Shown: positions 4,399-57,291 of the stretch, piece after piece
Position numbering within the stretch: position 1 is the stretch's first letter
Layout of the letters: each line of letters opens with the position of its first letter
Source of the DNA: Schmidtea polychroa
Taxonomy: Eukaryota
Length of the DNA stretch: 64,000 nt
Assembly (NCBI GenBank): GCA_044892525.1
Contig: CM097887.1
Coordinates: forward strand, 27,528,001-27,592,000
Reading direction: 5' to 3'
The notes under the pieces: model-generated
The model's input: only the letters and a program-made list of their open reading frames with translations
Told to the model about the DNA's origin: nothing
Database searches by the model: none
Translations under genes and position numbers: made by a program

Positions 4399-7300
4399 CA
4401 GGGATATTCAACTGGCGGCCCGCGGGCCTGATCAGGCCCGCCGAAATTTGAAAAAGGCCCTTTCAATATCTTGGATAATATTTGACACATATATAAAAAT
4501 ATTTGGTGAGGCGTATTTAAAATTAAGGTGTATTAAAATAGATCAGCTAATATGGGTTTGTTGTTTTTTAAAAAATATATTTAAGCGATATACATTTCTT
4601 GCTTACCCCATAATTTTTGAATGCAGATTCGCATCGATTTGAAATATTTTATTAATACATTAAAATTGATTTTTTTGTAATTAAAAAAATTAAAGAATGC
4701 AATGCCACGTATGAACAGTAACCGTAAAAAGTTGATTCAGAGAACAGAGTATTTCATGATTCATGGACAGACAAATTTTTGTTTGTTATACCGTTAATTG
4801 GAAGTCGACCTGTTTGTTTGTTGTGCAACGAAAGAGTGGCAGTTTACAAAGTGTCGAATATGAAAAGACATTTTGAAACTAAGCACAGCAAATTCGAGAA
4901 AGAATACCCACCAAATACCACTATCAGGCGTGATAAAATAAAATCGATTCAATTTTCATTAAAACGTGCACGACTTATATTAACAAAAAGCATATCGAAT
5001 CAAGAACGAGCAATGGAGGCATCCCTGAGAGTTTCATGGACTCTTGCAAAGAATAAGAAACCATTTAGTGATGCTGAAATAGTAAAAGAATGTATGCGGG
5101 AAGTAATAGACTCAGTATTTAGCGATAATGAAAAAGCGCAGATAATTTCGACTATCAACTCCATTCCACTATCAGACACGACCACCGGACGACGGGTGGA
5201 TATATTAGGTGAGGAATCATTCGAGATCCTCTGCTCCGCGCTTAAATCAGTGGATAAATATGCAATTGCCGTGGATGAATCAACCGATGGAAATGATGTG
5301 GCACAATTGGCCGTTTACGTTCGGTTTCTTTATAAAGATGTCTTTTATGAGATTGTTATGTTTACTGCCACTGATGGAGCACACAGGAGCTAATGATATT
5401 TACAAAATAATACATGTTTTTTGTTCAAAATCAAATCGACTTGCAAAAAATGGTCTCTTTGACAACTGATGGAGCACCAGCCATGATTGGCAGAGTGAAT
5501 GGGCTATCAAAAAGGTTTGCTGATAACAATCCATGCATTGCAACAATTCATTGCATAATACACCAATCTGTGCTGTGCGCTCAACTATCAGAAGAATTAG
5601 CTGATACTATGTCTAGCGCAATCAAACTTATAAACTTTATTCGATCAACTTCATCACTCCAACATAGACTTTTCAAATCATTTCTTACTGAAATAGAAGC
5701 TGAATATGGCGATTTATTAGCACACAATGACGTTAGATGGCTCAGTAAAGGAAGAGTACTTCAACGACTCTGGTGTCTACAAGACGAAGTGAAATGTTTT
5801 TGTCGACTAGCAAATTAATAAAGGCAGCAGTGTTCAAAGAGAAACTTGATGATGATAAGTTTAAGATGAATGTTGCATTTTTATGTGATATATTTGGCCA
5901 TCTGAACGATTTGAACACAAAGTTTCAGGGAAGAGGACACAATGTTGCCGATCTTTATTATAACGTAACTTCTTTTCGGAAGAAGCTAATATTTTTTGAA
6001 CAAGATATTGAAAGTCGGGAATTTTTACATTTTCCAACCCTCGCAGAGGCAACAAAATCTAATTTGAATGTTGAATGTGTCGCTAAAATGAGTTGTTTTA
6101 TTCGAAAATTGATTGTAAATTTTAAACAGCGATTTGAGAACTTCACATTTAACGATACTTTGCTCCTGTTCCTTACAAACCCTTTCTCAGTCGGTAAAGA
6201 AAGATGTATTGCACTTGTAGCTGCTGAACGTATACATGGATTGACGAAAGCACTTTCTTGCTTCAGCTTATAGATCTTCAAAGCAATGGAGATTTAAAGA
6301 CGCAGTTACAAGATAAACAAGTTAGCCTGGAAGTTTTTTGAATACTTTCGGCGTTCAGTTACCCGATTGTTCGTGAAATCGCATTAACTCTACTCACCAT
6401 GTTTGCTTCAACGTATGTTTGTGAAAGCTCATTCTCGACAATGAACATTATTATGAACAAACAGAGAATGCGCTTAGGATGTAAGAAATTGGAACACTGC
6501 TTGCGCATTGCAACAACATTATTCAAACCGGATTTTAAGAAACTGGCAAGTTACAAAAAATGTAGTTTTTCCCATTAGAACACGACTTAATTGGATTAGT
6601 ATGTGCAGAAAACATAAAATTATGGTTATTCGGGAATAATATATGAAGCTTTTATCCTATAATTTCTTCTTTATTCGGAACTTGCACGTAATTCCTCATC
6701 CAATATCATGTTTTAATTCTATAATAATAACAATTTTTATGTTTTTGTAATATACTTTATAAAGGTTTTAACTGTGTTCGTTTTTAATGAAGAATCTTGC
6801 CAACATTTTCTCGGATTAATATAAAAATCGGGGAGCAGAAATCTAATTACTAAAATGTTGATTTAATATCATCAATTATGCGAATTTAGGTGCTAAATTC
6901 GCTGGGTGCTATGAGTCATTAGTTATTTGTAATATTTTTTTCTGTGACGAGTGAACTTTCATCAAATGAGATCGAGGAGTCAATAGAATTATACATTTGT
7001 AGGCGAAAAAAATAAAACATGAAATGTTTTGTCCAACCAACCTGATATAGCAGTGATGACATCGGGTTGAAAGCTTAAATGGCTAACAATGTATGCATCA
7101 TGATTCCATCCCATATCGGCGATTCCCGCAGCCCGTTATAGATTCATACGATTAGTAGCCTCCACAGAAAATTGTAATTAATGTTGGTCATGATGTAAAT
7201 ATACTTTATTTGTTCATGCATTTCCGAAATTTTATTAGTCGGATAAATATAATATCTAAAGTGGAAGAAAGTCTATGTCACGCCAGCAACGATACAGCAT

Positions 7301-7665
7301 AAATCTTTGTGTATCACTTTAGAAACCATGACGGCTATGTTTAGGAGATAAAACGTTTCGGTAAACAGAAAGGAGAGCAACTAATAAATAAAACAATGAG
7401 TACGTTAAGTATACTGTAAAATATTGATTATATTTGATTATACCCAATAATGTTCTTCATACAAGACTTAAGCATTAATATGGATTCTTAAATATGCTCT
7501 GGCATAAATTATAATACTTGGTAATAGAATAACAATCACTAAAACCAGTTTATTTTTGTTACTTTGTAATCCGCTACAAAACTAACTACTTTTTAATTGA
7601 TACGGCCCTCGATTGCCGTTATAAGAAAAATTTGGCCCTTCATAATATTTAGTTGAATACCCATG
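4399..7665 (+). mobile_element. hAT (Charlie/SPIN/Buster-type) DNA transposon, full length, transposase disrupted
   Basis: TIRs CAGGGATATTCAACT (4399) and AGTTGAATACCCATG (ends 7665). Perfect 8-bp TSD CTCTACGG at 4391-4398 and 7666-7673. Confidence 0.95.
4711..6578 (+). pseudogene. GTF2IRD2/EPM2AIP1-like (Buster-type) transposase, frameshifted
   Basis: Pieces in three frames: PVCLLCNE...RHFETKH, AIAVDESTD, TTDGAPAMIG, IHCIIHQ, VRWLSKG, DIFGHLNDLN, and STYVCESSFS near the C-terminus. Confidence 0.93.
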
Positions 7666-8489
7666 CTCTACGGCATAAGACAAATCATAAACACAGATTC
7701 GTCGATATAGAAAGTCATTCACGATTATGCAATAATAATAGAGACGCAAATCTATGGATAATCAGCGTAGTTAGATTAGGCAGGAGTGATTTAAACATTG
7801 TCCACATCATAGGATTTTCTGTACATGTGAGAGGTTTTTCTACTAGTAAAGATTTTTCCGTAAATCCAAAATCTTTTCCACGATCGTCAATTCAAGCATA
7901 AATTGTTCATGAGAAATATCATCTGCATGAGTGAGAAATCGCGATTGGAATATTTATCATTAACGTTGACTTATCCCAACAAATTCGATTAAACATTACA
8001 AATGCCATATGGTTGAGATTGTAGGACAAGTGATCTAACCGGTGGTAGATACCGATTCTGATTGAGCTCCACTACATACAAATAACGGTGAGGATTGAGC
8101 GCAGTGTGGATTTAAGGAAATAGCCAGTATGTGGGTTAATGGATAGCGTAGTACTATAGTCAAAGTAGATAACGAAAATGTTCTCAGTGACCAATGAGCT
8201 AAAAATTAACAGCAACACTGATAAGGAAATACACAAACATAGTACACCGATTTTAGATATGCCTACTATGAACTACATTCAATTAGAATTAATTAAAGTA
8301 AAAATATAAAATTTTCTTTATTTTATTTAGCTATCAATTAATTTAATTTGGCTTACTGAGGCAGATTTCCCACCCGCTAGATGTGATCATTACTATTATT
8401 TATATTCTGCCTACAAGTTCGTTTGAGATTACTTCGTGATATACTTGGGATCGTCAACAGTTCAATCTTCGTTTTCATTTTTGTAGAAC

Positions 8490-24670: not shown

Positions 24671-25485
24671 TTTTTGACTATGGTTAAATCAAAGTTCAGA
24701 GCCATGAAAGCATCCAATAATAAAATAACTGTCAACGAAGCTTTATCTAATATTTTATCTGGGAATAATATATATGTTGAGCAGTGCAATGGGTTTTGGA
24801 GATCCATGTGAATTTGGCTAGAAAAAGCATTGAGAATAGCCTTTTATTTAATTAAAGAAATATAGATATATTTATTTTTTATTATATAATATCTTATATA
24901 ACACGATTTCGTCGGGAGTCTCTCGTTAGGAAAGTATATTTCCCGACTTCCGATATATATTATAACAGATGTACAGAATATTTTGTTTTTCACTAATTTA
25001 TTCTTTTTGGTTATTTTTTTGATTGAATTTTTCTTATTTGTGAAATAGTATTTTTTCTTTAATTTATGTATAAAAAATATAAATTAAGAAGATAATAGTC
25101 AAATTTTGTTTTCGTTATTTTCGATGTTTTCAAAATCTGGCAACCCTAGATAATTCATATGTATCTTAAAACAGAATTAAATCAAAATTAGCAAGGGATT
25201 TAAACCATTCTAGTGAGGATCAAGTTTGATACAAAAAGACGAAATCGAATAACCAATAAGAACACTTGGGAATACCCGTAAATGCTTCGTAATAAATTTT
25301 GTAGTTAGGTTAATTAATTATAATATCCTAACGTTTTCCAGTATTGCACGTGTATACCATAGACTCAGAAAATGCAAATACAAAATCCAATCGTATGTCA
25401 GTATTTGTTCCTGGGCCACAAAAATTGTAACCAGGCATGTGAAATTCACCCTTATAAATACGAGCCATTATAGTCTAGAATTATT

Positions 25486-26577
25486 ATGTCTGAAGAAATA
25501 TTAAATAAATTTATAAGTGATATTAATCCAAATAGAAGTTTTCCAACTTATCAATTACCAAGTTATTTTTACAATAAAGAAGGAGTAAATACAGCATATA
25601 TTAAAATCGATAGTGACGTGTTTAAGTGTTATAAACAATTCTATAACACACATCATCCATTCACTCGCTACGTTGTCGGACAGGAAGAAGAAGGTGATAG
25701 CGGATATAACCATATCCAAATGTATTGGGAGGTAAATACACCATGCATTCAAATTAAGTTACTAATGGAATGATGATGTATTTTCAGATTTACAACAATA
25801 TGTCTGTTTATGCCTTTAGGACAAAGACTCTTATTCCATTTGTCCGAGGTGTCCCCGGGACTGAGAGAGCGGCCGCAATCGCATACGCAACTAAGGTCGA
25901 TACAAGAGTCGCTGGAGGAATCTCAGTAAATATTGGCAAACCAAGTAAATATATGGCTCCTAATTCTGTAGACCATTTTAAAGCTGCTTTACATGCTCCT
26001 ACAATGAAAGATTCCCTTGATATATTAATGAAACATGAAGCATTTCATTATACAACTAAAAGAAAAACAATCATAGAAACATTTGTTAATAAATTTGGCT
26101 TACCAACTACACCAAACTTCGCAGATAATTTTTTAATTGAAAAAATAAATGTTTATGATTGGAAATTTCACGTATTTGTCGATGAGTCAGGCATTTTATT
26201 ATTATTTATTATTTGCTTTGTCACATTTTCAAAACCCAGTGCACTGCAAACATGTACAGATGTTAAATAGAGTTAATAGTGATGTGGAACAATGTGACGG
26301 AGTTGTATTTGATGATTTATATTTTAATAAATATAAAGTTGAAGAATTTCAGGCTTTAGTCGATTGTGCCTATGAAAATGTTATTAATATAAAGTATTCT
26401 GTTGCAGTTTTGCCTAAAGGTTTACCACGGATATTTAGTATAAATGATATTGATTTATTTTACCCCGAATCAATGACATCTAGTATTTTAGAAGCAGTTA
26501 AATGTAGAATAAAAATACATAATTTTCATGGACCTATATTTAAAAAATATAAATCTGAACAAGTATTATTTATATAA
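25486..26577 (+). pseudogene. CRESS-DNA-virus-type Rep (HUH endonuclease plus SF3 helicase), frameshifted
   Basis: Motif II region RYVVGQEEEGDSGYNHIQMY, motif III AYATKVDTRV, disrupted Walker A (VDESG...), ALSHFQNP, Walker B DGVVFDDL, motif C LPKGLPRIFSIN. TATAAATA lies about 30 nt upstream of the ATG. Confidence 0.85.
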
Positions 26578-26735
26578 TTTATTAATTAATTATATGTTTT
26601 AGACAATGACGCACCCCTATCTGAAGACGAATTAGTTGCAGTTAGACCAAAAAGTTCATGTCGTTTTATGAGTGTTCAATGTAATAATTGTAATAAGCCT
26701 GTACGCTTATACATAGGTGTTTGTAAAACCGATTT

Positions 26736-27650
26736 TTAATAAATGTTAGAATGTTTTATTTTATCAAAAAAATCATACTTTACATCATTTAATACATTAT
26801 AATCACTAAAAACATCTAAATTACTTCTAAATTCATAAGCTTTTTCAACAACAATATATAAACTTCGATTCTTCAAGGCCTGTTCGTGTTCACTAGCATA
26901 TTTCCAAATAGGATGATTATTCGAAATAATACATGGGCAATAAGATGAAGAAGCTTTAGACTCACCTTTACGAGAAACACGCAAAAATATATTACCTTCG
27001 CTCACAAGTTTAAGTAAGTTATCATTTTTAAAATCACAATATATTTCTTCACCAATAATTATTTCTTTACCAACACAATCATCAAAACAAAATTCACTTT
27101 GAGTTTGAGCACCAGTAAAAAATCCATGATTCAATTTTCCACAACAAATAGCAGTAAATAATGTTTTGCCACCATTGCTAGCACCTTCTAGAATAATTGT
27201 CTTTGTCTTTCCGGCTTTAGAACCCAATATTGTAAATATCCCAATAAGACGACGAATGTATTCTTTATTTTCAGGAGTGGGGGGTCGCGGGGGGGCCTGT
27301 AACATGGGTTCCTTCTGCAAACATTATGGCAATAATATTTTATTTAAAATTTTAATGCATTTGTAAGATATTAAATTACAATTTTTTTGTTACACATTGC
27401 GTAGCGTTTTTATTTGTAATTTTGCATTATTTATAATTCTCAGTAATTTTAATGAAATATCGAAAAAGATAATGTTGTGAAACAATTACAATAAAAATGT
27501 AAGTGAAATCCAAATATCATTTCACGTGAAAAATACATGAAAACTACTGCATCGTTTATACATTGCGCATCATTTTTGCAGAACCGATTATGGACACAAA
27601 ATGAGTTTTTGATGGATTTACAGAGGAATGTTTTTATATTTTTGGTTAAT
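26736..27650 (-). pseudogene. Parvovirus-NS1/papillomavirus-E1-type SF3 helicase with an upstream HUH-like motif
   Basis: Open frame 26736-27320 has Walker A (ILEGASNGGKT), Walker B (IIIGEE), motif C (CIISNN) and the Arg finger (LKNR). Broken upstream frames contain GFHLHFYCNC at about 27483-27511. Confidence 0.85.
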
Positions 27651-28220
27651 TAGCTTGTCAATGTCACTTTACACTTCATTTATTATTGACTTCTATTCTT
27701 TTATTTCTTTGATAATTTGTTTATGAAATTTGATAATTAATAATTAATGAAATTTTGTTTGTTTGCTTCAAAGAATAACTATTTACTGTCATATACTACA
27801 AGTAGGGCATCCATCCAATCTTGTTTTTGGGATTAAATAATAGTTACTTAATTTTTATAATATTTGTGCTTTAAATTAATACTGTTTATCTGAATGTGGT
27901 TCAATGTCTATTAATTTTCTTAATGAGCCAAAATTTAACCAATATTCATAGTTCCAAGCAGAAAAATACTGCTTATCAACACTTGAAATTAAAGCGTATT
28001 AAAACGGTATCAAATGATTCTAATGCTAAATTGGATGTTTCAACTGGAAAACGAAAATTACTGAATTTAAGAGCGTTTGGATATAAATTACTAATTAAAA
28101 TAAGAATTTTATATTTATTAACATATTTATTAACTCTAGTAGTAAAACGTAATGAAGTTTGACCTATTCTATAAAACTTGGCTGGAAAATCAGTTCGCTG
28201 TTTCGTGTAAACACTCATAC

Positions 28221-28342
28221 AAGTAAAATTATGCATTAATATAAGTAAAATTATTCATTAATATAAGTAAAATTATTCATTAATATAAGTAAAATTATTC
28301 ATTAATATAAGTAAAATTATTCATTATTATAAGTAAAATTAT
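28221..28342 (+). repeat. 22-bp tandem array (CATTAATATAAGTAAAATTATT)n, left terminal repeat of the Tc1 element
   Basis: About 5.5 units. It is the reverse complement of the array at 30671-30845, and a partial unit reappears at 29544 after the gap. Confidence 0.9.
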
Positions 28343-28348
28343 TGTGTA

Positions 28349-28938
28349 ATGATTAACGAATTACTGAACGCACTGGATAACAGGTGCATTAGTTGCTGTC
28401 ACCAGCCTCGGGTGGGACATTGCACTAGGGATCACACCGGGATGATTAAAAAATTAATTAAATCAAAGGTGCATTGCCCACGCCAGGACTGCACCAATAC
28501 TGTACGTGCCTCCGGGCTGGAGAGGCACATCAGAATGAAGCACCCTAACCCGCCTAATAATAATACGCCAGTGCGTTTTTTGTCACTTAATTCGTCAGCG
28601 CCGGGGGTGGCCAGTCCAATGCCGCCATTGCAGGAGGAGGTTTTTGTGCAGCCCATTGTGCAGGAGGAGGTTGTGTGGATCCCATTGTGCAGCCAGTTGT
28701 GAATGGCAATCAAGCGGTGCTGGAAGCCATACAGCAAATGGGGCAGCAATTAAGAGAAGACATGAATGCTAGAATACAGCAAAATGGGGATGCAATGCGA
28801 AATGAAATACAGCAGATGAATGGCAGGCTGAATGGCATGGAAGCTGCCATAAATGGCATGGGAGCTGCCATAAACGAAATAAATGGCAGGCTGAATTCTA
28901 TTGAGGCGAGGGTCAGTGTACTGGAGCATCACCAGTAG
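28349..28938 (+). pseudogene. GC-rich RING-remnant / SIAH-TRAF-type zinc finger plus coiled-coil ORF, one frameshift
   Basis: CISC...GHC...KVHCPRQDC...LERHIRMKH, followed by heptads (MNGRLNGMEAAINGMGAAINEINGRLNSIEARV). One missing base in the second EEV(F)VxPIVQ repeat (about 28675) would join the two ORFs. Confidence 0.5.
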
Positions 28939-28997
28939 GCCCTCAGCCAATAAGGTATTTATTAATTATTAAATTAATTATTAATTATTTATTAATC

Positions 28998-29391
28998 ATC
29001 GCGTCAGATGGGGATGAAGTTCAAAATCTCGCAGTTTACACCACTCGAATTCTTACGCTTCCCCGACCGTAAAGTAAGTCGTCTACAAACGATTTAATGC
29101 CAACACGTAAATCATTAAAAATGATTCAAACATCCAAACTATTTTCATAGAATGGTTAGAGTTTAAATATATGGCTAAGCCACATCCACTAACTTGCGTT
29201 AATGAATAATAAAATTGCCTCATTACGAGGATGGCACAAAATATCATGATTTTTAGGCGAGATTCAGACTTAGAGGCGTTCAGTCTTAATCTCTCGGATG
29301 GTAGCTTCGTGCCACTGACCTTTCGATCAAGCACATTTACCAGTGATCCGAATCTGCGGTTCCTCTCGTACTGAGCAGAATTACTATTATC
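28998..29391 (-). rRNA. 28S (LSU) rRNA 3'-terminal fragment, truncated by the gap
   Basis: The minus strand reads TAGTAATTCTGCTCAGTACGAGAGGAACCG (sarcin-ricin loop region), GAAGCTACCATC, ACTGAACGCCTCTAAGTC and GTAGACGAC, all conserved eukaryotic LSU segments. The exact 3' end is approximate. Confidence 0.95.
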
Positions 29392-29589
29392 NNNNNNNNN
29401 NNNNNNNNNNNNNNNNNNNNNNNNNNNNNNNNNNNNNNNNNNNNNNNNNNNNNNNNNNNNNNNNNNNNNNNNNNNNNNNNNNNNNNNNNNNNNNNNNNNN
29501 NNNNNNNNNNNNNNNNNNNNNNNNNNNNNNNNNNNNNNNNNNNTAAGTAAAATTATTCAATATTACAAGTAAAAAATATCGATCCCCAA

Positions 29590-30615
29590 ATGACAAATGA
29601 ATCTCAACCTGAAACTGCAAATAAAAGACGTAAAACCAGACAAACGATGAATCTGGAAATTTTAAAAAGAGTAAGAAAACAGTTAGAAAAAAATTATTCA
29701 GCAAGGCAAATTTCCGAAGAAATATCAATGAACTCCGTTTATAATTTAATAAGTAGAATAACTGATGGAATGAGTGACGAAGAAATATTAAAAAATAAAA
29801 AGGGAAGAAAAAAGCAACAAACATCCGAATTAAAAAACAAAATTAGTCAAATTTTATTAAAAGATTCGTCTTTTATTCAAAAGGAATTGTCTGAAGAGCT
29901 CCGTAAAGTGAATATTATTAAAAGTCAGAGTTCAATTTCAAGAACTCTCAGAAGTATGGAATACACAAGAAAAAGACTTGTGAAAATTCCTGAGGAAAGG
30001 AATTCACCAAAAAATATTAATGTTAGACAAAAATATGCACGCCAAGTTGAGTTTATTTCTGATGAATATCTTGTGTTTCTTGATGAAACCGGCCTGAATC
30101 TTCATCAAACGAGAAATTATGGTTATTCTCCAAAGAACACGAAGGCTGTAAAGGTGGTAAAAGGAAGCAGAGGTAAGAATATTAGCTGTATGTTAGCTAT
30201 TAAAAAGACGGGAATTCTTGCATTCGAAATAAGAGAAGGGTCATTTAATGGAGAAAGTTTTATTAGTTATATTGAAGATAAATTAACTGATCATTTTTTA
30301 AACAATCCAAACGATGTATTAGTAATGGATAACTGCAGCTTCCATCACCGAAGAGATGTTATTGATTTGTTAAATTCAAAAAATATTAATCATCGCTTTT
30401 TACCACCTTATTCACCCCAGTTAAATCCAATTGAGGAGTATTTTAGTCATTTTAAATCTGTCATGACATCTTTACATCCATTGCCAAGAAATAAAGATGA
30501 ACTAAAACTACGAATTTCTAATGTTTTTAATAATGAAAGAATTGATTTTGCTGGTTGGTTTCGTAGCATGAGAAGATACATTGAGAAGGCACTTGCAAGA
30601 CATGAATTTATATAA
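29590..30615 (+). CDS. Tc1/IS630 transposase, DD34E, apparently intact (341 aa)
   Basis: N-terminal HTH region, FLDETG, LVMDNCSFH and PYSPQLNPIEE, with 34 residues between D2 and E. No stops. Confidence 0.95.
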   Translation: MTNESQPETANKRRKTRQTMNLEILKRVRKQLEKNYSARQISEEISMNSVYNLISRITDGMSDEEILKNKKGRKKQQTSELKNKISQILLKDSSFIQKELSEELRKVNIIKSQSSISRTLRSMEYTRKRLVKIPEERNSPKNINVRQKYARQVEFISDEYLVFLDETGLNLHQTRNYGYSPKNTKAVKVVKGSRGKNISCMLAIKKTGILAFEIREGSFNGESFISYIEDKLTDHFLNNPNDVLVMDNCSFHHRRDVIDLLNSKNINHRFLPPYSPQLNPIEEYFSHFKSVMTSLHPLPRNKDELKLRISNVFNNERIDFAGWFRSMRRYIEKALARHEFI

Positions 30616-30670
30616 TTAAAATATAAATTTTAATATGATTTTATTTCTTCTTATTTTTATGATTTTATTT

Positions 30671-30845
30671 TTTACTTATATTAATGAATAATTTTACTTA
30701 TATTAATGAATAATTTTACTTATATTAATGCATAATTTTACTTATATTAATGAATAATTTTACTTATATTAATGCATAATTTTACTTATATTAATGCATA
30801 ATTTTACTTATATTAATGCATAATTTTACTTATATTAATGCATAA
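30671..30845 (-). repeat. 22-bp tandem array, right terminal repeat of the Tc1 element
   Basis: About 8 units of TACTTATATTAATG(A/C)ATAATTT, inverted relative to 28221-28342. Confidence 0.9.
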
Positions 30846-38069: not shown

Positions 38070-38782
38070 GTGTAAATATGTTATTATGAAATAAGAAAAT
38101 TTCTTCTAGTAGGCATGATCATATGGAGGCGATGTTAGTTTTAAAGACATCTACAAATTATTGGTCTATCCGAAAGAAACTGAAATTGTCACGGATATGC
38201 GGATTCGAGTATAAAGACATAATGTTATGCTTAAATTACGTCTTAAAAACCGATACCACGATGCCAAAAGACTTGTTTTTATGAGTTGAGTAAAAGTTTC
38301 TAGAGTCAGGCAGTTTGCAAGAGGGATTGCAATTAGTAGAAATGGAGAAAACTCTAGACTTCATTAAAATGAGTACGAAATTGTAACAATGTCTTGTTAG
38401 GTCATTTTAATGTAGACTTATTAATATTTTTAATCAATCTATTTTAAAACTACAAGAAACTCAGAGTCTTCACAAAACCACAATTCGATGACGAATGGTT
38501 GTACTGAAAATACCTTTTTGTTTTGATGATCTATATTTTATTTGAAGTAGAGTAGAAGAGTTTTTAAGTCTAATAGACTGCGCTTATGAGAATGTTATTA
38601 ATATTAAGTATTCAATTGCTGTAATACCTAAAGGTTTACCTAGAATAATTTGTGTTAATGATGTCGATATGTTTTACCCAGAGTCGATTACTCCTGTTAT
38701 AATGGATTCTATTAAGAGACGTTTGAAAATACATCGTAAAAAGACAGTTCCCGGATTCCGACATTCCTTCAACTTCAGCTAG
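38070..38782 (+). pseudogene. CRESS-type Rep, copy 2 (decayed, Walker A region deleted)
   Basis: KYVIMK..RHDHMEA (motif II), LNYVLKTDT (motif III), FDDLYF...VEEFLSLIDCAYENVINIKYSIAVIPKGLPRIICVND. Clearly homologous to 25486-26577. Confidence 0.8.
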
Positions 38783-39631: not shown

Positions 39632-41088
39632 TGTTAAATAAATAGTTCAGTCAAAAGAAAAGAGAATGTTAATAAATTTTTAATTTTTATCTGAAGGAAG
39701 ACATTTATGCGCAAAAAAGAAGTATTGATGGAGATCATGCGCCTTTTAAGCATCTTTATCAAAAGAGGAACTAGATTAAGAAATATTGCACAGCGTACAG
39801 ATAAAGCCAAGTGGACATTGTATGCTACACTAATAGAGAAGTATAATGTCAAACAGACTTTAGAACCAGGTTCTAGCTCAGATACTATCACTCTAGGCCG
39901 ATTGGTTTCTGCATTTCCAGAAGTCACGGCTTTGCTTTTGAAGAAATCTGGTTCTAGGTTTGGTCATCTAACTACAACTCTACCAACATGTTTGCAATTT
40001 ACTGCTGCTGCAAGTCTTCTACCTAAAGAGACTCTTAACGGCCACGATTATCATCATGATATTTGTGTTCAATTAGATGCTTTGGTGAATGGAGCAAAAT
40101 CGAACGTAGAAAAGGTCTCTCAATACTGGAACATAGCACATAGGTCTGTTCTCTTCAGTGATGAAAAGAGAAAGGAAATATTGGCAAATTTACTTGACAA
40201 CGAGGACTTTCTCTTGTTTGTTCCTCCTAGTCAAGAGGTAGTTGCTTCTGTTTCAAAGAGGAGAAGCAGCGCACTCAGTCCAACAAAACCTCCTCCTTCT
40301 AAAAAGCCTTATGCACCAACTTCTAGTAGAGGTAAGTAATTGTTAGAGTTCTTTATTAAACAATAAAAAAACTATATATAATTTTTTTTTTGTATAATAA
40401 CATTTACTATAATATAATATAATGCATAAAAAATAAACACAAATAAAATTCTATATATTCAAATGTTTCTTGATCAGCTAAATCGTCAGTGGAGTCCGCA
40501 ATAAGGTAAGTGTTAACTAGTGAAATTCTTGACCTGGTTGATAGTTACACTGAGTAGTTACGATCTTAAAATGCGTTGGCTAAATTGAAAATTTAAAAAC
40601 TGAGTGAATTAGTCGCTCTATTTCTTTATATACTGGATTCTATCCAATCAGAATCCAGTAAGGTTGTAATATCGTGTTTTTCCTTGTTTTTTCTCTTTTT
40701 TCTTTTTCTTCCGTTTTCTTATTCCTTTTAGTGATTTAATTAATAAATAATTTTAATATTCTTATTTTTTTTCTTTTGTTGGCTTTTGAGGGATCTTTCT
40801 TGTGATTTTATGCTTTACTTATTTTTTTTAATTATTATTTATATTTTTTGGTGTTGTTATTATCATTTTAATTTCTCGTTATTTTTCCTTTTATAGCTAT
40901 TATTTTTCTATTATTTTCTTTCTTAGGGGTATTTGCTTAAGGTTTTTTGTCTTTTATTGATTTTTCTATTATTTGTATTTTTGATTATCAGTTCTCTCAT
41001 CTCACTCTTTACTAATTCCCAACTGAACTGAATTCCTATTTAGTTACGTTATATAGTAATTTGGACTCACTAAGTTATCAGCCCAACA
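39632..41088 (-). mobile_element. Solo-LTR-like cassette (TG...CA ends, 4-bp TSD) carrying a viral nucleocapsid-like ORF
   Basis: TGTT at 39632 and CCCAACA ending at 41088, with TTAT on both flanks (39628-31 and 41089-92). The minus strand starts TGTTGGGCTG, then an A-rich tract, CTGATTGGA and TATATAAAG. Confidence 0.75.
39707..40339 (+). CDS. Phlebovirus/tenuivirus (Phenuiviridae)-type nucleocapsid-like protein
   Basis: IFIKRGTR..., LIEKYNVK, DTITLGRLVSAFP, LPTCLQFTAAASLL and AHRSVLFSDEKRKEIL run collinear with remembered phlebovirus N motifs (ALTRGNK, LINKYKLK, DELTLSRVAAA, AVNSNFISHEKRREFL). Open 210-aa frame with AATAAA at 40362. Confidence 0.78.
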   Translation: MRKKEVLMEIMRLLSIFIKRGTRLRNIAQRTDKAKWTLYATLIEKYNVKQTLEPGSSSDTITLGRLVSAFPEVTALLLKKSGSRFGHLTTTLPTCLQFTAAASLLPKETLNGHDYHHDICVQLDALVNGAKSNVEKVSQYWNIAHRSVLFSDEKRKEILANLLDNEDFLLFVPPSQEVVASVSKRRSSALSPTKPPPSKKPYAPTSSRGK

Positions 41089-43820: not shown

Positions 43821-43989
43821 AAAGAGAAAACTGTATTGTATTTGAAATATTTTATTTTTGCTAAATAATAAAGCTTTGCAAATGAATTGAATTGCCTTTG
43901 CTTAAGCACATTTTAAACATCCAGTTCATATTAAACATTTACAAGTGTTGAATATTATTACTGCAGATATAGATAAATGTGACTGATTC

Positions 43990-48486: not shown

Positions 48487-48768
48487 TGTGTCCAAAATGA
48501 TATTTTATTTTTATTTTACCTTGAAAATCTTATAAACTCATCAATTTTGTTTGAATTTTAAAAAAACGTTTTAAAATGAGTCCGCTATATACACTATCTC
48601 TTCGGGGGGACCGGCGCTTCGATTATTGTACATACATTGTATTTAAATCATACCCATCGGTGTACAAGCGGTCCCCGAGTAAGACATGTCGTGTACCGGC
48701 CCGTGAGCACGCGGGCCGATAATGTTGTTGCGGAGTGACTCACCGGTGGACATGCGGTCTTTAACGTG
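47990..48768 (+). mobile_element. piggyBac 3' fragment (transposase C-terminus, CRD and right TIR)
   Basis: MLSTKHDDSM...KPAIVIDYNKGNGFIDLSDQMAAY, then RKQCRL..ARKSAKKINAICEKC...DCF..NH. GC-rich TIR ends ...ACGTG followed by TTAA at 48769-72. An (AT)n run lies at 48449-48483. Confidence 0.9.
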
Positions 48769-48953
48769 TTAATATCAAGTATTCAGTTGCTGTAATACCT
48801 AAAGGTTTACCTAGAATAATTTGTGTTAATGATATCGATATGTTTTACCCAGAATCGATTACTCCTGTTATAATGGATTCTATTAAGAGACGTTTGAAAA
48901 TACATCGTAAAAAGACAGTTCCCGGATTCCGACATTCCTTCAACTTCAGCTAG
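48769..48953 (+). pseudogene. CRESS-type Rep, copy 3 (3' end only)
   Basis: Nearly identical to 38598-38782 (NIKYSVAVIPKGLPRIICVNDIDMFYPES...). It begins exactly at the piggyBac TTAA. Confidence 0.9.
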
Positions 48954-54700: not shown

Positions 54701-56419
54701 TTACATCTTGTTAATGCGCTTGTAATTGGCCATGAAGCGCTCAAACGCCTCGTTGACTCGGTCGATCATCTTGCACAAGTGATCGATTGGTTTCGAATCC
54801 ATTGACCCGGTTAAAATGTAATAATTCGGATGCTGCTGAACGAAACCGTCGATTTTCTGCAATCGAAACTTTTTAATGGCCTCGACCATGCGATGCAGCT
54901 TCTCGAACCCAGCGGAATCGGTAACCGGGAAACATTCCCAGAAATGCCTAAACAGTTCCGATGAAATCCGGTACAGCAATTTGATATCACGTATCATTTC
55001 CGGCGGGAGCTTCCCAGCGTTCCGACCCTGCTGAATACAGGACGACACAGCGACATCGGCATCGGAAAACAGATGCCCAATATCGGTCAACACGTCCGTT
55101 GCCACTGACGACGACATTAAATTGACGAGCGGCCGGCACTGGGTGTTAGTGAGATTCTGTTTCAACAATGCCAATCTGCGCAATTGTTCCTCCTGGAACT
55201 GCTTCATCCGTTTTCTGTCGGCTGTTGATTGGCCGGTCACATTCGCAACGTTGCTTGATGAGATTCGGTTGATATATTGACTGACTTTGTCAGTATTGAA
55301 TTTCACACCTTCCATCCGATCGAATGTCGATTTCTCCAACACGAATCGCTCTTCTTCACTGTACATTTCCGATGAAGAATCGATCAATCGCCGTTTCTCA
55401 TTCCCGCCATCCAAATCTACAGAATCCGATTCGTTGGCTCGTTTTGATGTATTTTTGGATTTCATCGTTTTTAATATTAGGAAACTCTGGCGATTGAATC
55501 GTCTTAAAAGTTCTTCAGAACTCGAACTTTTCTGTGTGTCAGAATTAATCGGTTTCCCCGTGCTTTCCTGAATACAGAACTCACCGATATCTTCTGTTTT
55601 ATCCTGGATTAGTGTCAAGGATTCCTTTTTCAATCGCTGTGCTTCTTTTTCAATTTGTTGAATATCATAATATGCACAACTGCCAAATTTATCATTGGAA
55701 AGATCGCTTTTAAATCTGTGGAAATAATGAGATTGAAAGAATTTATTCCAAAATTCCTCTTCAGACATTTCATTGGGAACCAGTTGAGTATGTTTTTGTT
55801 TAACTGCCGGATAAACTGCGAATATATCTTCAACCATTTGCCGACTGAGATTACATTGTGATTTACCGTCTTTTTGAGGAGGAGTTGCTAACAACCACGA
55901 CGGAATGCCACGATTGTACATGCTATACTCATTTACTGATGATTGTTGACTAATGTTAGACTCAGCACGTTGCCAAAATTCTTCTTTGCATACATACTTA
56001 TTAGTGACTAATTCACGATATAAATCTAAGATCTGAGGGTTATTTTCACAAAGTTTTCTTTTATTTTCTAATTCAGATTGAGCTTTTTCTTTAAATCTTG
56101 GAATGAAATATTGGAGAGAAATTTTAACGCTATTTCGATCACTTACTTGCTTGGATCTTCCGTCAGGATGAATGAAATGAAAAGTAAAGGAAGAACCAGA
56201 GTGCATAAGTAATTGCAACTGAACTTTATCTTTATCATCTGGGCTAATTCTTTGTGCACGAATATTCTTATAATGCTCACTAATTTTAAACACATCTGAT
56301 GTATTTGTCATCCAAGCTAATCGCTCTGTCATTAAATATAATTTTCCTTCTGTCTTTTTATAACTAACATGATCAATTAATTTAACAATATCTTCAGTAG
56401 ATTTTGAAACATTTGACAT
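54701..56419 (-). CDS. GTF2H1: General transcription factor IIH subunit 1 (p62/Tfb1), intronless, 572 aa
   Basis: N-terminal PH domain (KKTEGKLYLMTERLAW...QRISPDDKDKVQLQLLMH), BSD1 (LYRELV..EEFW), BSD2 (IFAVYPAVKQKH..VP..MSEEEFWNKFFQSHYFHR) and C-terminal ELFRHFWECFP. Confidence 0.95.
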   Translation of the reverse strand: MSNVSKSTEDIVKLIDHVSYKKTEGKLYLMTERLAWMTNTSDVFKISEHYKNIRAQRISPDDKDKVQLQLLMHSGSSFTFHFIHPDGRSKQVSDRNSVKISLQYFIPRFKEKAQSELENKRKLCENNPQILDLYRELVTNKYVCKEEFWQRAESNISQQSSVNEYSMYNRGIPSWLLATPPQKDGKSQCNLSRQMVEDIFAVYPAVKQKHTQLVPNEMSEEEFWNKFFQSHYFHRFKSDLSNDKFGSCAYYDIQQIEKEAQRLKKESLTLIQDKTEDIGEFCIQESTGKPINSDTQKSSSSEELLRRFNRQSFLILKTMKSKNTSKRANESDSVDLDGGNEKRRLIDSSSEMYSEEERFVLEKSTFDRMEGVKFNTDKVSQYINRISSSNVANVTGQSTADRKRMKQFQEEQLRRLALLKQNLTNTQCRPLVNLMSSSVATDVLTDIGHLFSDADVAVSSCIQQGRNAGKLPPEMIRDIKLLYRISSELFRHFWECFPVTDSAGFEKLHRMVEAIKKFRLQKIDGFVQQHPNYYILTGSMDSKPIDHLCKMIDRVNEAFERFMANYKRINKM

Positions 56420-57291
56420 AACTTGATGTATTTATAATAAATCTTACTTAATAATATTTATATATCCTTATATAATTAGTAAATAAATAAATTAACAACT
56501 TTTAAATACGGTATTTCGATTATTCTAATATTAAAACAATAAAATAAAATTATAAAATTAATGTCATTTATCAGCATTCATTTCTTTATTTCTACATCGC
56601 TAGCTAAAGAAAATTACATATTTTAAATAAATTATTGACGAATATGGAATATTAATAGTACAATTATTGTAAAAATTAAAATTTGAAAATAATGAAAGTG
56701 AATAACATTAAGGCTTTGTTGGAAATACGTCAACACAGAAATTTTCCACATCAATCTTCGAAACAAATTGACTCCACTTTTTGTATTGACACATAAAATC
56801 TTTACCACTATACATTCGTCGCAAGTGATGTTGCTCCTGTACATAGGTGGTCGACCTTCAGCGGTACAAATTTTCAGCATCATTCAAGACAATAAAGACA
56901 AAATTCGCCCGGTGTTCTACTTCTGAAAGTTTAAATAGATACATTGATAGAAATATGGGTGGTGCTGCAGTTGGGGAGGATAAATTGCGAAATTGGAAAA
57001 GTAAATCTTAGAAATTCGCTATGTAATCAATTCTGAGATTAATTATGTACCGTATCTTTTGTGTGCTCATTGTTTATTTATTGAACTTGCCTGTTGGGTT
57101 GCGCACACAGACACGAGGCTATATAGATTTTTTTGATTTTGTTTTCATTTTTTGAAATGGATTGTATTTTTGGATTTAATTAATTGAGTTTTCGGACTTT
57201 GATTAGAAGTTTGTTTCAAAAGGTTTATGTCGCGGATTTAAAAAAAATAAAGATTTTTTAAAACTTTCATTTTATTTTTGGTTTCATCATG

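Follow-up and report, generated by a model that had tools for sequence, protein, structure and literature searches.

A gene resembling the replication initiator (Rep) of circular Rep-encoding single-stranded (CRESS) DNA viruses faces a superfamily 3 (SF3) helicase gene in the genome of the planarian Schmidtea polychroa. The pair lies in a 64,000-nucleotide stretch of contig CM097887.1 (C3:27528001-27592000 in our contig numbering; hereafter, the window), and raises the question of whether two viral remnants merely lie side by side or both belong to one element, and of what kind that element is. We found that the two genes, which converge on the plus (Rep) and minus (helicase) strands as the original prediction from the letters of the window had it, belong to one element and are no chance neighbourhood. 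At the window locus, this repeated element is represented by a copy with truncated ends and an internal deletion; the element is probably the fossil of a hybrid linear single-stranded DNA (ssDNA) planarian virus having a CRESS-type Rep, a parvoviral SF3 helicase devoid of a nuclease domain, a parvovirus-like capsid gene bearing a phospholipase A2 (PLA2) domain, and T-shaped hairpin ends. The element belongs with the planarian extrachromosomal virus-like element (PEVE) and its integrated relative PIVE.

Recurrence of the gene pair in the genome

The genome searched comprises 781 Mb in 1012 contigs, four of which are large. A convergent Rep gene was located within 1.5 kb at 16 of the 20 best helicase loci, one further locus having the two genes in tandem and three being without a Rep; two more convergent pairs were found beyond these 20. 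Genome matches amount to at least 47 for the helicase, at least 93 and at least 66 for two pieces of Rep, and at least 52 for the capsid domain, with dozens of copies spread over all four large contigs, and matches to the viral genes of the element were absent from all 40 evenly spaced control windows. Because nine of the convergent-pair copies form a single cluster (C3:28.09-28.16 Mb) and one copy (L026) is a near-duplicate of another (L022), the number of independent sites is smaller, namely, the window, seven other dispersed sites, and the cluster. The closest relatives of the two genes differ, as would be expected for two unrelated endogenous viral fragments (one CRESS, one parvoviral) brought together by chance, the outcome that the original prediction had tied to a pair never co-occurring elsewhere. 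This explanation is refuted by the recurrence described above, in which the convergent junction with its shared intron and exon is found at 16/20 loci and the pair is enclosed by common inverted terminal repeats (ITRs) in L022, L023, and L042/L043, and we consider it extremely improbable.

The copies differ in gene order. Between the two ITRs, group A copies carry the capsid gene (leftward), an accessory open reading frame (ORF X) and Rep (both rightward), and the helicase (leftward). The order in group B is Rep, capsid, and helicase, with the Rep-capsid block inverted relative to the helicase (L040; in part, L035 and L053). In group C, a third lineage found at L057-L059, L061, and L062, the capsid block is divergent from the accessory ORF and Rep, and no helicase was found near it at these five loci; its Rep and capsid frames are long and open, it is closer to PEVE than the other groups, and its capsid frames gave no PLA2 match. 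Three independent copies extending from hairpin to hairpin measure 5.84, 5.86, and 5.95 kb, and each is without a different 0.6-1.0 kb. Few as these three copies are, they would be compatible with packaging being limited to about 6 kb; the genomes of parvoviruses measure 4-6.3 kb (PMC11557940).

Rep fragments have also been amplified as tandem arrays at L056 (C4:92.18-92.79 Mb) and at C1:145.07-145.17 Mb. L056 shares sequence with positions 28393-28538 of the window, and further window fragments belong to the same Rep family (38087-38746, 43897-43983, and 48768-48917, +).

Organization of the window copy

The window copy holds only 28 capsid codons, a spliced and damaged Rep, and a 5′-truncated helicase. 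Its defects include truncation at both ends, a deletion of ~610 bp in comparison with the copy L029, and a damaged Walker A stretch; it is integrated and decayed, as had been predicted, and is in itself an ordinary decayed fragment. The following features were assigned, with HUH motif names in their customary sense.

25385-25468, minus strand: 5′ fragment of the capsid gene (28 codons) with the start of the PLA2-like domain, beginning with the ATG at 25468 and cut off at 25385
25453-25458, plus strand: TATAAA within the coding part of the capsid gene; it may serve the accessory ORF and Rep as a promoter
25486-25659, plus strand: first exon of accessory ORF X, family unassigned, joined to Rep by the ~610-bp internal deletion
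25660-25731, plus strand: what is left of the first Rep exon, including HUH-like motif II (HIQMY); the deletion has removed motif I together with the N-terminus
25732-25787, plus strand: Rep intron of 56 nt, GT-AG, assigned by comparison of copies
25788-26562, plus strand: main Rep exon with motif III (YATK) and the SF3 helicase domain (profile A1, E 9e-56 and 1e-57)
26563-26602, plus strand: putative 40-nt GT-AG intron, predicted from its sequence and containing a minus-strand AATAAA (26578-26583)
26603-26739, plus strand: last coding exon, with four Cys in its frame; AATAAA follows (26738-26743)
26736-27272, minus strand: parvoviral-type SF3 helicase without nuclease domain (PF01057, E 6.2e-9), with ~45 N-terminal codons lost in this copy
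27274-27300, plus strand: G-rich run of low complexity, aligning locally to 5/7 ITRs at p<0.05 against shuffles in a post hoc comparison and missed by blastn

Rep had been described as preceded by a TATA box. The TATAAA does occur at 25453; the ATG at 25486, on the other hand, opens the separate accessory ORF, which runs into Rep because ~610 bp are missing relative to the 92-96% identical L029 (two segments of 92% and 96% identity, split at 25660 by the 610-bp gap). Since this TATAAA lies inside the divergent capsid gene with its ATG at 25468 on the minus strand, the earlier statement that no capsid gene was recognisable holds for the window fragment only, and the family as a whole has such a gene. 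The assignment of Rep to the circo/nano type had to be abandoned, as PF02407 matched with an E of only 0.11 (13 bits, below the cut-off of 26) and the Rep structure 7lar with an E of 0.2. In alignment A1, Rep combines HUH motifs with an SF3 helicase, the two-domain architecture of Cressdnaviricota, and the Walker A stretch of the window Rep (~26180-26215) is frameshifted. The Rep intron starts with GT and is 53-58 nt long in all 14 matched copies (9 distinct), as counted with a search pattern requiring AG and the exon start and leaving copies not matching it outside the count. One contig of run X7, which we guess to be RNA, skips this intron exactly and another X7 contig reads through it; group B Reps are colinear in the alignment and are without it.

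The ~160-bp gap reported between the two genes exists as a stretch between the main Rep exon and the helicase, but is made up of the putative 40-nt intron (26563-26602) and the terminal coding exon, which is open with its four Cys in 12/12 copies examined and would be joined through a predicted donor. Both AATAAA hexamers that had suggested a compact, virus-like layout are present, one at 26738 as stated and the other on the minus strand one base away from its reported place (26578-26583, not 26577-26582), but they occur at chance level (0.33 and 0.30 expected in a stretch of 170 bp). The helicase stop likewise does overlap an AATAAA, a feature peculiar to the window copy, as the other full-length rows of alignment A2 end two to three codons earlier.

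The helicase frame (26736-27323) matches Parvo_NS1 (PF01057) with an E of 6.2e-9, and its best match in the PDB is Rep40 of adeno-associated virus (AAV; E 5.3e-7). From the earlier description as a parvovirus NS1/papillomavirus E1 type, the NS1 half therefore stands, and an E1 identity is ruled out by the absence of any PPV_E1_C match at E<=1. Full copies of the gene encode ~220 aa and start no more than ~400 bp from the hairpin or the adjoining terminal repeat, leaving no room for a nuclease domain. One relative was found among Logan proteins and none in viral contigs. The element thus has a second helicase beside Rep, a candidate counterpart of the protein encoded by the small PEVE segment.

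Terminal hairpins

Inverted repeats flank the unique regions of L022 (381 bp, 100% identical), L023 (97-100%), and L037, and are lost in the window copy. All five ends that were folded form T-shaped hairpins (z -13 to -17), and none of 200 shuffles was as stable. The two-arm core of the hairpin has 17 exact occurrences, as opposed to 0 for the reversed control, and 0 matches in metagenome contigs. Both orientations of the arms (flip and flop) are present at the capsid end and at the helicase end, and the coexistence of flip and flop is a mark of hairpin resolution in AAV. The stems vary between copies with their pairing kept, and the group B ends (L036 and L037) show the same T shape with another sequence. 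Copies are also joined into concatemers via single hairpins, with short helicase-fragment units between hairpins. Terminal hairpins of a linear genome, one of the criteria for Parvoviridae, are therefore found in the integrated copies themselves.

In L022, L026, L066, and L068, short units containing a 5′ fragment of the helicase lie between hairpins, head to head with a longer copy; such units recall defective genomes or the small segment of PEVE. The G-rich run next to the helicase of the window copy may be a remnant of a terminal hairpin stem, for which its alignment to the ITRs makes it a weak candidate.

Capsid gene

The 28 codons of the window were identified by tblastn with a 1130-aa frame of L022 (79% identity, E 5.6e-10), which is divergent from Rep, recurs in other copies, and contains a PLA2-like domain (PF08398, E 1e-9). 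The same domain was detected in 4/4 further group A and B frames tested, with E values from 1e-9 to 3e-12 across the two groups. Two homologues in group C of the same genome (24% identity, E 8e-15) were added to the group A and B sequences, and the resulting profile A4 matched 10 PDB entries, all of them capsid proteins (VP1/VP2/VP3 or major capsid), with VP2 of 9n5m being the best (E 1.8e-5); no Pfam capsid family was found for 20 members of A4. With the predicted group C structure as a query, Foldseek placed AAV capsids first (E 8e-8, with a TM-score of only ~0.25), and VIA-align placed 19 parvovirus capsids on top (Z 9.6-12.7; rmsd 3.5-8.2; 187-233 residues aligned), followed by a circovirus (Z 7.8). 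The top Atlas matches of the group A capsid are parvovirus and densovirus capsid clusters (0.94). The product is thus predicted to be a parvovirus-like jelly-roll capsid, an assignment that is well supported as a fold and unsolved in detail. A jelly-roll capsid, often with PLA2, is a further criterion for Parvoviridae, and the element appears to possess one, as judged from a low-confidence model.

Relationship to PEVE, PIVE, and other ssDNA viruses

PEVE, reportedly described in 2002, has an extrachromosomal, partly single-stranded form; it has remained an oddity that carries two helicases and is not known to have a recognised capsid. The Rep profile, run against 1.84 billion protein representatives, retrieved 1805 relatives at E<=0.001, among which PEVE Rep is the fifth match and the best named one. 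A quick tree of 74 rows unites the Reps of groups A, B, and D, PEVE with group C, and five unnamed Reps in one clade (SH-aLRT 97), in keeping with the relationship to PEVE put forward in the original prediction. Rep identity to PEVE is 29-31% for group A and 40-41% for group C. A viral-contig record corresponding to the large PEVE segment (L081; 5699 nt, with 243-bp inverted repeats) encodes the PEVE Rep and also a homologue of the capsid protein (E 6e-13 with the group A and B capsid profile; 49% identity to group C), and contains no match to PLA2 or to either helicase query. A search with an ITR pattern did not retrieve the small PEVE segment.

Accordingly, PEVE and the element share a Rep clade and a layout in which the capsid gene diverges from the accessory ORF and Rep between inverted repeats. 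They differ in that the PEVE helicase resides on a separate small segment (supplement to Liu et al. 2011, PMC3198968), the helicase of groups A and B being encoded together with the other genes on one molecule, and in that both PLA2 and T-hairpins are present in groups A and B and neither was found in the PEVE record. PEVE is not known to integrate, according to the same paper (PMC3198968). PIVE, in contrast, is according to that paper a relative of PEVE integrated in Schmidtea (Repbase, 2008), and its proteins are listed in the trees beside those of PEVE, the NS1-like PIVE_1p next to the helicase of the small segment and PIVE_3p next to the Rep of the large one (PMC3198968). Like PIVE, the present element is integrated in a planarian genome and encodes an NS1-like protein as well as a Rep; it may be PIVE itself, with which it is compared here by description only. 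The difference is that the text of Liu et al. consulted here names no capsid, hairpin, or intron for PIVE; Figure 5B carries a Parvo_coat_N label, which may or may not belong to PIVE (PMC3198968). In our literature search, no paper assigned a parvoviral capsid or T-hairpins to PEVE or PIVE, within a reach that left out the original PEVE paper, the Repbase entry, and Figure 5B of Liu et al., any of which may mention either. Parvoviral fragments and one ssDNA virus of planarians are on record (PMC13055364, PMC9241645).

The element shares with Parvoviridae, and with AAV in particular, ITRs that form T-hairpins in both flip and flop, an N-terminal PLA2 domain in the capsid protein, the capsid core, and a parvoviral SF3 helicase. 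The family is, however, defined by an NS1 joining HUH and SF3 domains (PMC13426907), and because such an NS1 is missing, the element is not a member of Parvoviridae even though it would work like a parvovirus. It also differs from AAV, whose Rep40 is an isoform, in that its nuclease-less helicase has a gene to itself and a CRESS-type Rep is present. Despite this Rep, it does not appear to fit the circular families of Cressdnaviricota. Oomyviridae (order Lineavirales), referred to as "parvo-like hybrid virus", likewise combine a linear ssDNA genome, a CRESS Rep, and a PLA2-containing capsid protein (PMC13426907, PMC12451638); their hosts are likely stramenopiles, and the available text mentions no second helicase, whereas the present element is integrated in a planarian genome and its capsid core itself matches parvoviruses. 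Bidnaviridae are comparable in having retained a parvovirus-derived capsid and SF3 helicase with replication taken over by another gene (PMC13426907). The gene in that case is a family-B polymerase, and no such polymerase occurs between the ITRs of the element, its matches being confined to flanking Polintons.

Selection and insertion sites

Ratios of nonsynonymous to synonymous divergence (dN/dS) are 0.04-0.25 in 49 of the 50 computable pairs of copies, with dS mostly near 1. Taken singly, the helicase gave 0.04-0.16 (15 pairs), the first part of Rep 0.10-0.24 (20/21 pairs, the exception being the window against L029 with 0.46 at a dS of 0.06), the second part of Rep 0.04-0.13 (4/10 pairs computable, the others being saturated), and the capsid 0.08-0.18 (10 pairs). 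The copies have therefore diverged under purifying selection, and the pattern agrees with working genomes of diverse sequence having integrated repeatedly and then decayed.

An ssDNA virus could also have given rise to a transposon that now spreads inside the genome with the capsid gene as a passenger. Dozens of copies on all four large contigs, the treatment of PIVE as a parvovirus-like transposon by Liu et al. 2011 (PMC3198968), and near-identical copies at C3:28.09-28.16 Mb and C1:52.55-52.60 Mb all point in that direction. The near-identical copies are, however, confined to such local clusters, the dispersed ones being mostly separated by a dS near 1, and the capsid gene is constrained as strongly as Rep. 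Moreover, no integrase or transposase was found between the ITRs, and L023, the only insertion inspected that has full ends, lies with both its ITRs inside the family-B polymerase frame of a Polinton (L023:1-215 and 6100-7700; L090), where a small deletion accompanies it and no target duplication is evident. A transposon of this kind thus appears unlikely, and we prefer the fossil virus.

Several other copies of the element also lie in or beside Polintons. A role of Polintons as helper or preferred target was not supported, because they accompany 16/56 distinct sites as compared with 7/40 control windows (p 0.24), or 10/50 (p 0.79) when the six loci that had supplied the queries are omitted; for proximity within 1.5 kb, p is 0.03, becoming 0.17 without these loci.

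Proposed life cycle

For the fossil virus, we infer the following mode of replication, nicking, packaging, shell formation, and integration. A host polymerase would extend the terminal hairpin, and the CRESS Rep, which is the only recognisable HUH nuclease in the element, would nick and resolve the ends in rolling-hairpin replication. The separate helicase, possibly retained from a parvoviral NS1 minus its nuclease, may act as the packaging motor by analogy with AAV Rep40; in AAV, Rep40/52 are needed for efficient packaging, and their loss cuts encapsidation 20-fold (PMC12713660). The capsid protein would build a parvovirus-type shell, and genomes presumably enter chromosomes accidentally through repair, with no integrase involved.

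An alternative to end resolution by Rep involves ORF X, which is conserved among the copies and belongs to no assigned family. Were ORF X a nicking domain, the element would be a divergent parvovirus with an NS1 split into ORF X and the stand-alone helicase, and the CRESS Rep a captured satellite gene dispensable for end resolution. Ends, capsid, and helicase are indeed all parvoviral, and the ITR stretches inspected offer no CRESS nonanucleotide. ORF X, on the other hand, shows no similarity to HUH nucleases in Pfam or, for its second part, in the PDB, and does not detectably match the correspondingly placed ORF of PEVE; Rep is maintained by purifying selection in group A and occurs in groups A, B, and C as well as in PEVE. 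We therefore consider a split NS1 quite unlikely.

Several observations weigh against the fossil-virus reading as a whole. It is drawn from integrated sequence, and all genes are intact in none of the loci examined. The canonical CRESS nonanucleotide NANTATTAC does not occur in the six ITR stretches inspected, the PEVE record L081 has no T-hairpin, and ORF X could hold an overlooked function. The Rep tree is a quick one built without labelled family references. As for the capsid, its C-terminal part found no homologue among 5.8 billion proteins (length, 621-1978 aa), and the group A and B profile alone matched nothing in the PDB. The group A model was poor (pLDDT 28) and was left out of the fold search, and the group C model used for it is also poor (mean pLDDT 38), with a better core. 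In Atlas, densovirus and smacovirus clusters are level at 0.96 for the group C capsid, with low recognition value.

A wider reading, to which we give about even chances, is that PEVE, PIVE, and the three lineages described here make up an unclassified family of animal ssDNA viruses, parvoviral in shell, ends, and packaging motor, in which the NS1 nuclease has been replaced by a CRESS Rep resolving AAV-like hairpins. An ancestral helicase segment would then have been fused to the main segment twice, in opposite orientations (groups A and B), and the fused genome would have outgrown its ~6-kb shell, giving deletion variants that complement each other. If true, an animal virus would combine parts of two ssDNA phyla, Cossaviricota and Cressdnaviricota, as a hybrid of the kind represented by bidnaviruses and oomyviruses, and a rolling-circle initiator would be able to serve rolling-hairpin ends. 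From these copies, PEVE gains a homologue for a capsid, a model with hairpin ends, and a proposed sharing of tasks between its helicases, making it testable as a real virus. A native planarian DNA virus would be of interest to a field that, to our knowledge, lacks vectors.

Other features near the copies

An insert derived from an RNA virus is located at window positions 39695-40339 (+), where a 214-aa frame matches the Tenuivirus/Phlebovirus nucleocapsid family (PF05733, E 1.2e-8). Closer to the gene pair, a fragment of large-subunit (LSU) rRNA identical to the rDNA arrays (28993-29396, -) adjoins a DDE_3 transposase (29551-30615, +), and both are enclosed by inverted arms of a 22-bp minisatellite (28212-28350 and 30670-30845). 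Near another copy of the element, at a distance of ~2.4 kb, L025:25-1374 contains a RING-finger, TRAF-like host frame (PF00097). Finally, a single-exon frame of 576 aa at positions 54701-56431 (-) of the window resembles the p62 subunit of TFIIH and may encode it.

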